A stretch of DNA of 64,000 nucleotides from an uncultured Chlamydiae bacterium (GTDB taxonomy: Bacteria > Chlamydiota > Chlamydiia > Chlamydiales > SM23-39). Positions 2,324 to 10,532 of the stretch are shown in pieces. Numbering within the stretch: position 1 is the stretch's first letter; each line of letters starts with the position of its first letter. A model generated the notes under the pieces. The model was not told the DNA's origin and did no database searches. It saw only the letters and a list, made by a program, of their open reading frames with translations. Both the position numbers and the translations under genes were made by a program. The stretch lies in the NCBI GenBank assembly GCA_963828125.1, contig CAWHDP010000002.1:768539-832538 (forward strand), given 5' to 3'.

Positions 2324-3655
2324 CTAAAGCCACTCTTTCTGTTGCAAAAGGGCCTGTTCTACAAACATCTCCTCGCCATAGATGCATCGACATCCCTTTT
2401 TTTTTGCAGCAGCCAGGAGCGGGGTCTCCTTTGGATGGTAGACGACGTCCATAACCACTGCGTGGGGACGAATCTGTGGAACTTCCCCAGATTTTGGCGG
2501 GATCGTATTCACCAAAATATCATAAGGTTGCGACCCTAAGTCAGCCAGCGCATATCCTTCGCAGCCGAATTCCTCAGCCAGGGCCTCTGCCCTCTCAGTA
2601 GTCCGGTTGAAGACTGAGACGAGCGCCCCCCTCTGCATCGCCTCGTAAGCAATCGCTCGCGCAGTGCCTCCTGCGCCGAGGATCGCAAGCCGCTTCTCCC
2701 GCACAGGAGTGTATTTTTCGATGGCGTTCAGAGCCCCTGGGGCGTCGGTATTCGCGCCGATGGCCCGACCCTCCCGAAAAATCACTGTATTCACTGCGCC
2801 GATCGCTGTCGCGGCGGGGGTCAGCTCATCCATATGGAGGGAAACGAGTTCTTTGAGGGGGATCGTAACGCTGAGGCCGCCGAAGGGAAGCTGCCGGATC
2901 AGTTTGAGTACTTCGGGGGCCTCTTCGCCGCCCACCCTCATTTTGATGTAGACGGCGTTGTGCTGAAAGCGGGAGTTGTGGAACAGGTGGCCAGGACTGG
3001 CTTCCACTGGGTCGCCGATCAGCGAATAGATGAGAGTATCTGGGCTCAGCTGCCGATAGTGGAATGTCCCTAGGAGAGTTTTTAGGCTATAACGGTGGAG
3101 CTGAGGGTCTTCGTCCAGCCCCGCGTAGTTGAGGAGGCTCCCGACGATGGGGGCGATGATGCGAGAGGGTTGGCCGTATTCCCCCATCGACATGACCGAG
3201 AGGGGCGCTTTGGACTCCTTCGCAAAAATCATCAGCTGCAAAAGATCGGGGGTGGAGTTGGCTTGGACGGCGATTTTATAAATCGCAAAATGGGGGTTTT
3301 CCATTGTTTTGAGAAGAGCGCCTAGGTCGGAGGGCGTTTCGTTGAAATTATGGTATGAGCCGATCCACTTAACTTTGGGAAATTTCTTCGCGATCCGCTC
3401 AATAAAGGCAGGATCGGTATCTGCCTCGATGTCGCAATATTCAGGCGCCAGTTCGAGGTATTTTTCGATTTTTTCCAGCCGCGTGGTCTCATCGATTTCA
3501 AGGACGCCCCCTTGTTCTTTTTTCCTGAGGGTAAAAATCACGGGACATGACGGCTTGGCCTCAATCTCAAAGTGATCGAGGCGGAGCTCCACGAGATCGA
3601 CCCAAGGGGCGATTTTCTCGATTTGATCGAGGCACGTTACACTTCCGACAAGCAT
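2324..3655 (-). CDS. aroE: Bifunctional 3-dehydroquinate dehydratase (type I) / shikimate 5-dehydrogenase (AroD-AroE fusion)
   Basis: The N-terminal half has type I DHQase-like sequence (VDLVELRLD..., SYHNF). The C-terminal half has shikimate dehydrogenase motifs (GANTD, ILGAGGTARA). The same fusion is known in Chlamydia. Confidence 0.85.
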   Translation of the reverse strand: MLVGSVTCLDQIEKIAPWVDLVELRLDHFEIEAKPSCPVIFTLRKKEQGGVLEIDETTRLEKIEKYLELAPEYCDIEADTDPAFIERIAKKFPKVKWIGSYHNFNETPSDLGALLKTMENPHFAIYKIAVQANSTPDLLQLMIFAKESKAPLSVMSMGEYGQPSRIIAPIVGSLLNYAGLDEDPQLHRYSLKTLLGTFHYRQLSPDTLIYSLIGDPVEASPGHLFHNSRFQHNAVYIKMRVGGEEAPEVLKLIRQLPFGGLSVTIPLKELVSLHMDELTPAATAIGAVNTVIFREGRAIGANTDAPGALNAIEKYTPVREKRLAILGAGGTARAIAYEAMQRGALVSVFNRTTERAEALAEEFGCEGYALADLGSQPYDILVNTIPPKSGEVPQIRPHAVVMDVVYHPKETPLLAAAKKKGCRCIYGEEMFVEQALLQQKEWL

Positions 3656-4629
3656 TTGTGAATCAAGTTAACCTCTTTCATCATTTTCTGAAACAATTCA
3701 GGTCCGATCGTTTGGGCAGCGTCGGTGTAGGCTTTGTCTGGATGGGGGTGCATCTCGACGGCAATGCCGTCGGCGCCAGCTGCGACTGCGGCGCGGGCCA
3801 TCGGGAGAACCATCGACCGGATGCCTGTGCCGTGGCTCGGATCGACGATAACAGGCAAATGGCTCAGCTCTTTCAAAACAGGGACGGCATTGAGATCGAG
3901 GGTGTTTCTCGTATGGGTCTCGAAAGTCCGAATCCCCCGCTCGCACAGTATCACATTCGGATTGCCGGCGCTGATGATATATTCGGCAGCAAGAAGGAGA
4001 TCTTGGTACGTCGCGGCAAATCCCCGTTTGAGAAGGATGGGGTTTTTCACACGGCCGAGCTCTTTTAAAAGAGAAAAATTGTGCATATTCCGAGCGCCGA
4101 TTTGCAAAATGTCGGTGTATTTTGCGACGAGATCGATTTGGCTTGCGTCCATCACTTCGGAAACAGTGATCAGACGATAAGGCGCAGCCGCTTTCTGCAA
4201 GATCTGAAGCCCCTCTTCCCCCATCCCCTGAAATTCATAGGGCGAAGTGCGTGGCTTGAAGGCCCCTCCGCGAAGGGCCTGCGCTCCGTTCTCAAAGGCT
4301 AGTTTAGCGCAAAATTCCATCTGCTCTTTCGACTCAATAGAGCAAGGCCCAGCAATCACAAAGAGCTCGTCGCCGCCGATGGTTTTCCCTTTGAGCTCAA
4401 TCACAGTCTTGTCTCTCGCCGCTTTACTCGCCAGCTTGAATTTTTCTTTGAGGGGGATGACCGCCTCTACTTCGGGAAGGGCGGCAAAAAGGGCCATGTC
4501 GACCAGTTTATCGACTCCCCTCACAATGTTCAGCCGCCGGTCGCCCTGTCGTACGGCCTGCAAGCCCATCCGCTCGAGTCTTGCGATAAAAACAAATGGG
4601 TCAACACCCTGTTTGAGTTCTAAAATCAT
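3637..4629 (-). CDS. 3-deoxy-D-arabino-heptulosonate-7-phosphate (DAHP) synthase, type I-beta, with a ~70-aa N-terminal regulatory-type extension
   Basis: KDO8PS/DAHPS I-beta family motifs (VIAGPCSIES, LRGGAFKPRTSPY, IGARNM, KRG, VDPSH). I chose the internal start MILELKQ at 4629 because ATG overlaps the trpA stop as ATGA. The 65 codons upstream in the track ORF lie inside trpA. Confidence 0.85.
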   Translation of the reverse strand: MILELKQGVDPFVFIARLERMGLQAVRQGDRRLNIVRGVDKLVDMALFAALPEVEAVIPLKEKFKLASKAARDKTVIELKGKTIGGDELFVIAGPCSIESKEQMEFCAKLAFENGAQALRGGAFKPRTSPYEFQGMGEEGLQILQKAAAPYRLITVSEVMDASQIDLVAKYTDILQIGARNMHNFSLLKELGRVKNPILLKRGFAATYQDLLLAAEYIISAGNPNVILCERGIRTFETHTRNTLDLNAVPVLKELSHLPVIVDPSHGTGIRSMVLPMARAAVAAGADGIAVEMHPHPDKAYTDAAQTIGPELFQKMMKEVNLIHKCLSEV

Positions 4630-5321
4630 AGCCTTTTTCCTTCCACAAAGTGTGAACCGACGACAAATCCGTCGGCAATGTTTAAAATCTGGTCTGCCGT
4701 CGCCCTGTCCGAAATCCCGAATCCGACAGCAATCGGCAGCTCGGTTTTCGCCCTCATTTGACCGATCTTCTCGGCTAAATCGGCGGGCAGTCCGTGGCGG
4801 GCGCCTGTCGTCCCTTTTCGGCATGCGTAGTACAAAAATCCCCTCCCCGCCTTAGAGATCTCTCCAATCCGCTCAGGCGGCGTCGATGGAGCGATCACAA
4901 AAATCGGCTCCAGGCCCGTCTCATCGCAGTAGCGCCGGTAATCGTCCGCCTCTTCAATCGGAAGATCGACGATCAAGATCCCATCAGCCCCCGCCTGTTT
5001 CGCTCTCGTTAAAAACCCCTTTAAATCCCTCTGGATCGGGTTTAAATAGGTAAACAGGATCAAAGGCGCCTCGGTCTCTTTCCGGAGCTCCTGAACCAAA
5101 TGGAGCACCTTCTCGGGGGTCATCCCCGCCTTGATGGCCCGCTCCATCGCTTTTTGAATCACCGGACCGTCGGCTACCGGATCGGAAAAGGGGATGCCGA
5201 TCTCGAGGACGTTGACGCCGATCGAAAGGAGCTCGAGGAACTCTTTTTTCCCCGCATCTCCCGCAGTCAAATAACCGACGAAGGCCTCTTTTTTAGCAAA
5301 GGCTTTGGATATGCGCGACAT
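4626..5321 (-). CDS. trpA: Tryptophan synthase alpha chain
   Basis: Typical TrpA N-terminus ([27 protein letters not shown]) and typical length. Confidence 0.9.
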
Positions 5322-10228: not shown

Positions 10229-10235
10229 TCTCCTG

Positions 10236-10532
10236 TCAGGAGAAAAGCCTCCTGAGATCTTTGCTAATTTGTTTAATAAAATTCGACCCTCGAGTGATTT
10301 TAGCAATGCTCACCTTGAGATCCTTCGCCATCTCTCGCTGGGTCTTTTCCCCCTTCACGAGCTCCTTTACGATGAGGAAACGGGTTTTGACGTCGTCTCT
10401 CTCCTCAGGCGTCAACAAGAGCCAAAAGAGCTCATCTAGCTCCTTCTCGCTCTTCGCCCCCTGGCATAGCCTCAAAAAGCTCCGCCAGCCATCAACCTCT
10501 CTTTCCATGGTAAATCCGTCTTTTTCATACAT
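10236..10532 (-). CDS. trpR: Trp operon repressor TrpR
   Basis: 98 aa. LLLTPEERDDVKTRFLIVKELVKGEKTQREMAKDLKVSIAKITRGSN closely matches the TrpR helix-turn-helix region (LLLTPDE...ATITRGSN in E. coli). Confidence 0.85.
   Translation of the reverse strand: MYEKDGFTMEREVDGWRSFLRLCQGAKSEKELDELFWLLLTPEERDDVKTRFLIVKELVKGEKTQREMAKDLKVSIAKITRGSNFIKQISKDLRRLFS

Follow-up and report, generated by a model that had tools for sequence, protein, structure and literature searches.

How closely can an intracellular bacterium tie its entire aromatic biosynthesis to tryptophan? The question is raised by a locus in an uncultured Chlamydiae bacterium (assembly GCA_963828125.1), located in a stretch of 64,000 nucleotides (nt) of contig CAWHDP010000002.1 (positions 768,539 to 832,538), hereafter the window. 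[quoted passage not shown] Our analysis indicates that these genes probably form a vertically inherited operon of the type known from Simkania, and that TrpR would control a block holding both the sole DAHPS and the sole aroDE of the genome.

Gene identities were assigned by Pfam and NCBIfam profile matches, and those proposed in a preliminary description of the locus were borne out. All eight genes are intact and each is present in a single copy in the genome, as determined for TrpR and the type I dehydroquinase by local tblastn. TrpR matches TIGR01321 at 93.7 bits (cut-off 67.25) and PF01371 at 82.3 bits, and the TrpF-TrpB fusion matches NF010376 at 679 and TIGR00263 at 572 bits. In the TrpD-TrpC fusion TIGR01245 spans residues 2-298 and the indole-3-glycerol-phosphate synthase (IGPS) models span residues 293-504. 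On recomputation the gap and overlaps given earlier proved exact. A 7-nt gap, CAGGAGA, which is a Shine-Dalgarno sequence, separates trpR from trpE; the overlaps are 20 nt (trpE/trpG), 11 nt (trpG/trpD-C), 25 nt (trpD-C/trpF-B), 29 nt (trpF-B/trpA), 4 nt (trpA/DAHPS, ATGA) and 19 nt (DAHPS/aroDE). These values use ATG 10228 for trpE and ATG 4629 for DAHPS, and the start codons are backed by relatives, with alignments that open at residue 1-8 of each protein. Two of the enzymes have unusual outlines. TrpE shows an LLES-type motif (ILESS) and is short, with 412 amino acids (aa) vs. 490 in Simkania, and it scores under every NCBIfam TrpE cut-off. The IGPS part of TrpD-TrpC matches its Pfam model only from around position 38 onward, and the usual N-terminal helices are absent.

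DAHPS and 3-deoxy-D-manno-octulosonate 8-phosphate synthase (KDO8PS) share the Pfam family DAHP_synth_1, and KDO8PS models do match the seventh ORF weakly, at 111 bits against a cut-off of 314. Is the ORF then a KDO8PS, as its active-site residues might reveal, or otherwise not a DAHP synthase? It passes the DAHPS models NF006421 (433 bits, cut-off 335) and TIGR01361 (377 bits, cut-off 268), and a separate, true kdsA is found at C1:162229-163065 (NF003543, 390 bits, cut-off 242). GGAFKPRTSPYEFQG and IAGPCSIES are readable in the translation, and KPRTSP stands where the kdsA product has KANRTS. In type I-beta DAHP synthases KPRT(S) is the substrate motif and a Cys binds the metal. The closest solved structures are the DAHP synthases of Pyrococcus and Thermotoga. 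A KDO8PS identity was ruled out by the model scores together with the separate kdsA, and any reading other than a DAHP synthase is extremely improbable; on profile and motif evidence the operonic enzyme is a genuine type I-beta DAHP synthase. Its residues 28-323 align to the Thermotoga maritima DAHPS (1RZM, 3PG9), with which it shares the catalytic KPRT motif, and the alignment reaches into the ferredoxin-like N-terminal regulatory domain of that protein. The N-terminal extension here measures about 65 aa and is regulatory in appearance. The T. maritima DAHPS is inhibited by Tyr and Phe. A Thermotoga-type N-terminal domain would likely add a second, allosteric layer of control.

The AroDE product matches PF01487 (residues 9-182), PF08501 and PF01488, and aligns to NF006802 over residues 11-442 with 304 bits, under the equivalog cut-off of 598. 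Its identity to AroDE in other chlamydiae, where the gene is single-copy, is 33-52%. The motifs SYHNF, YKIAV, PLKE, NTD and GAGGTARA are readable; the first two are the His and Lys motifs of dehydroquinases, and the Lys, Asp and GAGG motifs are those of shikimate dehydrogenases.

The assembly comprises 2.37 Mb in two contigs with 48.6% GC. Besides kdsA, the operonic DAHPS provides its only PF00793 match, and neither a class II DAHP synthase nor a second Shikimate_dh_N domain was found in the genome. No further type I dehydroquinase was recovered by tblastn, a search that left aside the type II enzymes (PF01220). A genome search for a second DAHPS and for aroB, aroK, aroA and aroC returned no second DAHPS; the four genes cluster at C2:1849307-1856270, without aroDE. 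Chorismate has four outlets, namely TrpE, MenF, chorismate mutase (CM) with prephenate dehydratase (PDT), and TyrA. Four same-genus relatives carry a cluster tyrA-DAHPS2-CM-PDT-aminotransferase, in which DAHPS2 is a second, short DAHP synthase (about 50% identical). The corresponding cluster here (C2:442497-451218) keeps tyrA and CM-PDT-aminotransferase, and the DAHPS2 slot holds three unrelated ORFs of 393, 457 and 408 aa (C2:444711-448804). A tblastn search of the genome found no DAHPS2 remnant anywhere. With neither another DAHPS nor a DAHPS2 remnant present, the operon therefore holds the only DAHPS and the only aroD/aroE of the genome. As judged from the cluster comparison, the tyrA-linked second DAHPS has been lost here, and the loss is peculiar to this genome relative to its same-genus relatives.

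The likely control element lies upstream of trpR. When the 130 nt upstream of trpR were compared in 12 genomes of three families, in an alignment anchored on ATTACA, a common module was seen: TTGACn, about 10 nt, then TGTAMY-NN-TGTAAC-ATTACA. In the window the -35 hexamer TTGAAT is followed after 17 nt by the -10 hexamer TAACAT (10541-10536), which falls inside an 18-bp near-palindrome, GTAATTGTGTAACATTAC, the predicted TrpR operator. A matrix made from the 11 relatives alone ranked this site first of 4.7 million positions in the 2.37-Mb genome, with 26.2 bits vs. 18.6 for the next match. The next-best matches (C2:1057726, 552364 and 1431838) adjoin unrelated genes and were dropped as secondary TrpR sites; the predicted TrpR regulon is therefore the trp operon alone. 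In length and in the outer GTA...TAC the predicted operator agrees with the E. coli trp operator, whose left arm reads GTACT, as does the left arm in two of the relatives. The predicted operator sits on the only recognisable promoter of the operon. Given its conservation in 12 genomes and its rank as best match genome-wide, TrpR autoregulation of the operon is likely.

The same comparison bears on the trpR start codon. The longest ORF begins at ATG 10532, and the 18 nt before it are the conserved operator and -10 box. An in-frame ATG equivalent to 10532 is absent from 10 of 12 relatives, which start at the equivalent of 10508. As the module ends at ATG 10532 and most relatives have no in-frame ATG there, trpR most likely starts at ATG 10508 and not at 10532, with a predicted gene of 10508-10236 and 90 aa. 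Annotation pipelines are likely to make trpR eight codons too long, given that ATG 10532 lies within the promoter-operator module. There is no room upstream of trpR for a leader peptide or attenuator.

Table 1. Coordinates of the operon genes, control sites and other features (window positions, except for those prefixed C2).
Feature	Position	Strand	Description
aroD-aroE fusion (type I 3-dehydroquinate dehydratase + shikimate dehydrogenase)	2324..3655	-	443 aa
DAHP synthase type I-beta	3637..4629	-	330 aa; NF006421 433 bits
trpA, tryptophan synthase alpha	4626..5321	-	231 aa; TIGR00262 220 bits
trpF-trpB fusion (phosphoribosylanthranilate (PRA) isomerase + tryptophan synthase beta)	5293..6939	-	548 aa
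trpD-trpC fusion (anthranilate phosphoribosyltransferase + indole-3-glycerol-phosphate synthase)	6915..8450	-	511 aa
trpG, glutamine amidotransferase component II	8440..9009	-	189 aa; TIGR00566 220 bits
trpE, anthranilate synthase component I	8990..10228	-	412 aa; Chorismate_bind 273 bits
trpR, Trp repressor	10236..10508	-	90 aa from likely start; longest ORF up to ATG 10532
Predicted TrpR operator, 18-bp near-palindrome GTAATTGTGTAACATTAC	10533..10550	-	covers -10 box
trpR promoter -35 hexamer TTGAAT	10559..10564	-	position kept in 12 genomes of three families
IS5-family end fragment	10771..10971	-	202 bp; 99.5% identical to full copy C2:442300-443500
MenF, isochorismate synthase	C2:50586-51632		

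In the model that we favour, a single sigma-66/70-type promoter (TTGAAT, 17 nt, TAACAT) upstream of trpR would drive co-transcription of the eight genes. Trp-loaded TrpR, bound to the 18-bp palindrome over the -10 box, would repress trpR and everything downstream, and the overlapping stop and start codons would couple translation along the block. After the loss of DAHPS2, the genes for the first step of the shikimate pathway and for steps 3 and 4 would lie only within this Trp-responsive unit. The preliminary description had argued that the position of DAHPS and aroDE behind trpA would bring carbon entry into the common pathway under TrpR/Trp control. This proposal gains support from the sole DAHPS, the sole AroDE and the conserved operator on the only recognisable promoter. 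The composition of the proteins is also of interest. TrpE, TrpG, TrpD-TrpC, TrpF-TrpB, TrpA and DAHPS together contain one Trp in 2221 residues vs. about 29 expected from the long ORFs of the genome (Poisson P ~8e-12), of which only 3% are Trp-free. DAHPS is as Trp-poor as the trp enzymes; AroDE, with three Trp, is not. The low Trp content fits enzymes that are needed during Trp starvation, as argued in PMC3937554.

Several observations weigh against so strict a control. The -35 hexamer TTGAAT is weaker here than in relatives (TTGACn in 10 of 11, TTGCGT in G300), and so is the left operator arm, which reads AGTAATT here vs. TGTAATG in the relatives. The assembly is estimated to be 95% complete. 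Full Trp repression would also deprive the cell of Phe, Tyr and menaquinone, a point in favour of leaky repression, an internal promoter or host supply. Within the bacterium's own family, designated f1, opposite-strand genes lie between aroDE and the DAHPS gene in four relatives (G319, G371, G377 and G268), and aroDE is therefore transcribed separately there; judged from these gene maps, aroDE need not be co-transcribed with trp in this family. Finally, the consensus scan for internal promoters was too insensitive for their lack to mean much. It found no minus-strand promoter-like site with 9/12 consensus matches within 2324-10532, and at that threshold it would miss the trpR promoter itself (8/12). 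Terminator-like matches in the operon were not above those in shuffled sequences (18 vs. 11.0, standard deviation 3.8).

Is the block then only partly one unit? One or more promoters within the 3' coding parts of trpA or DAHPS could give TrpR-independent basal expression of DAHPS, aroDE or both. Phe, Tyr and menaquinone continue to require chorismate, the four relatives transcribe aroDE separately, weak promoters would escape the scan, and in the trpRBA operon of Chlamydia trachomatis a second promoter, for trpBA, has been demonstrated by experiment (PMC6504234). Set against this are the lack of intergenic space at any junction and of any minus-strand site at 9/12 matches, the overlapping DAHPS/aroDE junction kept in G300 and G275, and a DAHPS as free of Trp as the trp enzymes. 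The preliminary description had gone further and concluded from the tight junctions that no room is left for internal promoters; this does not follow, since promoters may lie within coding sequence. On balance we regard such promoters as unlikely, though a possibility to be taken seriously; if they exist, the common aromatic pathway is not really under Trp control. A reading in the opposite direction makes Trp the master signal for all chorismate-derived synthesis, with the sole DAHPS and AroDE expressed from the TrpR promoter only and the DAHPS domain perhaps sensing Trp. Host Trp supply would then gate the production of Phe, Tyr and menaquinone as well, and environmental chlamydiae would have a counterpart to the persistence logic cued by Trp that has been proposed for Chlamydiaceae. 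This version appears doubtful to us and is offered tentatively.

Across the phylum, 400 genomes were surveyed with the DAHPS as query, and neighbourhoods were compared on 20-kb maps. Close full-length relatives were found in many families. At the best 29 loci outside the bacterium's own genome, the gene directly upstream of DAHPS is trpA (26 loci) or trpG (3 loci). The same trp-DAHPS order is seen in more than 25 chlamydial genomes and in at least four chlamydial families. In families f8, f9 and f14 the genes are unfused and ordered trpR-E-G-D-C-F-B-A-DAHPS, and in family f1 trpD-C and trpF-B are fused in genera g1, g13, g21, g25 and g28; five genera of this family have trpD-C as an uninterrupted fusion. 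An identical eight-gene layout occurs in a public metagenome-assembled genome (MAG) of the same genus, Chlamydiae bacterium RIFCSPLOWO2_12_FULL_45_20 (MGMD01000008.1). The fusions and the recruitment of aroDE thus recur in several genera of family f1, and we found no paper describing the fused, aroDE-bearing variant.

The unfused form is known from Simkania negevensis Z, whose operon trpR/trpE/G/D/C/F/B/A/aroA ends in a type I-beta DAHPS (named aroA in that operon) and has 18 nt between trpR and trpE, with all other genes overlapping (Bonner, Byrne and Jensen 2014, PMC3937554; see also Cenci et al. 2016, PMC4916741). Our survey contained such a locus, L173, in a genome (G060) with three DAHPS matches. 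It has the same layout, a 17-nt trpR-trpE gap, overlaps of 4-16 nt and no aroDE, and its protein lengths of 91/490/193/330/264/207/389/253 aa equal the published Simkania table (PMC3937554). The operon in the window resembles that of Simkania in the leading trpR, the very short trpR-trpE gap (7 nt vs. 17-18 nt in Simkania), the overlap at all other junctions, the trp gene order, and a terminal I-beta DAHPS that belongs to the same clade and has an ATGA overlap with trpA. The promoter-operator motif is present in G027 of family f8, the family of the Simkania-like G060; this comparison did not include the Simkania locus itself. The two operons differ in that trpD, trpC, trpF and trpB are separate genes in Simkania and that aroDE lies about 185 kb away there, near another DAHPS paralogue. 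Furthermore, Simkania has three DAHPS paralogues, the operonic one included; the DAHPS in the window stands alone in its genome. Judged by gene order and content, the operon in the window is a Simkania-type chlamydial trp operon in derived form, with two fusions and a recruited aroDE.

The operons of Chlamydia stand further apart. Those of C. trachomatis (trpRBA) and C. caviae (trpRDCFBA, with kynU/prsA) also have trpR at their head, and TrpR autoregulates these partial operons from a promoter upstream of trpR (PMC6504234, PMC7755916). Unlike the operon described here they encode only part of the pathway, serve the salvage of indole or kynurenine, carry no aro genes, and contain a 348-bp intergenic region with a second, YtgR-controlled promoter. 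The view in the preliminary description that a full trp set with aro genes represents a different strategy thus holds relative to Chlamydiaceae. It does not hold relative to environmental chlamydiae, where the arrangement is widespread and was described for Simkania in 2014 (PMC3937554).

How did aroDE reach the end of the operon? Of 150 chlamydial genomes, 140 have just one copy of the gene (one match each). Elsewhere in the phylum it usually adjoins aroB and often aroC, and this is also the case in genus g16 of family f1. It follows the trp-linked DAHPS in genera g1, g13, g25 and g28. It stands directly behind DAHPS, with an overlap or a 6-nt gap, in the bacterium's own genome and in G300, G275 and G323. 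In G319, G371, G377 and G268 accessory genes on the opposite strand, which encode an ATPase, kinase-like proteins, a HAD hydrolase and a reductase, take up 1.1-3.2 kb between the two, and in G340 and G388 aroDE is not near the trp-linked DAHPS. The simplest reading of this distribution is one relocation of the native aroDE in an ancestor within f1, with later insertions or losses in some lineages. In the course of events that we propose, the operon trpR-trpE-trpG-trpD-trpC-trpF-trpB-trpA-DAHPS would have been inherited vertically, and in family f1 trpD would have fused with trpC, trpF with trpB, and aroDE would have moved from an aroC-aroB-aroDE cluster to the operon end.

The hypothesis of vertical descent was weighed against recent en-bloc lateral acquisition, in which the whole block would have been brought in with a neighbouring insertion sequence (IS) element. 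The GC content of the operon, 54.1% vs. 48.6% for the genome, falls at the 97th percentile among stretches of 8.2 kb, the end fragment of an IS5-family element is found 240 nt upstream of the trpR promoter, and no flanking gene was found in common with the operon flanks of same-genus relatives, a result that says nothing on the ancestral location. However, GC at third codon positions of the eight genes (0.56-0.66) is within the spread seen for long ORFs genome-wide (median 0.575, 95th percentile 0.67), and in relatives the GC of the operon tracks that of the host genome, from 0.46 to 0.55. A maximum likelihood tree of 116 DAHPS sequences placed the 32 chlamydial trp-linked DAHPS in one clade (SH-aLRT support 99), apart from the tyrA-linked paralogues. 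Within this clade the sub-clades agree for the most part with families (f8, f9, f16 and f1), with the exception of G358, labelled f9, which falls inside the f1 clade; the nearest neighbours of the DAHPS in the window are same-genus genomes. The IS fragments, moreover, are scattered genome-wide. En-bloc acquisition, a possibility raised by the preliminary description, is thus not supported; we consider it very unlikely, and a recent transfer was rejected on third-position GC, host-tracking operon GC and tree congruence. Composition and the DAHPS tree argue for long vertical descent over recent import.

The IS5-family element may instead explain local changes. It is present as one full copy and about 25 fragments (98-100% identity) over both contigs, and the N-terminus of its transposase matches DUF4096. 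The only full copy lies directly upstream of tyrA. IS-driven rearrangement is probably behind the changed neighbourhood of the operon, and perhaps behind the lost DAHPS2. On its other side, aroDE is 35 nt (2289-2323) from a convergent RING-finger gene (1545-2288, plus strand), and no terminator-like hairpin was found in these 35 nt.

Linkage of trp and aro genes is not restricted to chlamydiae. Supraoperons are known from Bacillus subtilis (aroFBH-trpEDCFBA-hisC-tyrA-aroE) and Nostoc/Anabaena, and aro genes lie beside trp in Desulfovibrio vulgaris (PMC1173090). In these systems, as in the window, genes of the common aromatic pathway run co-linearly with trp; the systems differ in regulation (TRAP or attenuation in Bacillus), in the sets and orders of aro genes, and in having no trpR inside. 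A wider scan with the DAHPS was dominated by generic I-beta enzymes from many phyla, and showed linkage of the type trpEGDCFBA-DAHPS or DAHPS-trpE in Zixibacteria, Dehalococcoidia, Bacillota, Acidobacteria and Vibrionaceae contigs as well. The trp operon of Coxiella burnetii, with a trpF-trpB fusion, has been proposed to derive by transfer from a Simkania-like donor (PMC3937554). It shares with the operon here the fusion of PRA isomerase to TrpB and chlamydia-like trp genes; unlike here, its trpR is unlinked, DAHPS is absent and several genes are decaying.

A full trp operon with its own DAHPS was long thought to be unique to Simkania among chlamydiae, and is shown here to be common and ancient in environmental chlamydiae, with family f1 having tightened it further by two fusions and the recruitment of aroDE. 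The genome offers a natural test case, with a single aromatic entry enzyme behind a tryptophan repressor, and bears on how intracellular bacteria tie metabolism to host tryptophan. No new mechanism is added, and the interest is mainly for specialists in chlamydial metabolism and operon evolution.

Further loci recovered in the survey show other states of these genes. Two MAG contigs labelled Neisseria/Neisseriales, L065 (CAZZAV010000014.1) and L066 (SSGX01000043.1), carry trpE-trpG-trpDC-trpFB-trpA-DAHPS (about 2100-11000) with fused trpDC and trpFB and no trpR match. These operons are 44-61% identical to that of the window, and their DAHPS nests within chlamydial family f1 in the tree; they reflect either misbinning or an export from chlamydiae of the kind proposed for Coxiella. 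A trpE-trpG-DAHPS trio without trpD, C, F, B or A occurs at L050 (G358), L053 (G167), L054 (G255) and L058 (G104), in some genomes with aroDE nearby, divergent or 4 kb downstream. The copy in G358 is 79% identical to the window, though this genome is assigned to another family (f9). Finally, L174 (G039:C17:6000-16000; 4477-9998) of family f12 contains trpR and short remnants of trpE, trpF-B and trpA, 62-79% identical, which divergently adjoin aroDE-aroB-aroA-aroK-aroC, and resembles a decayed trp operon in which trpR has survived.

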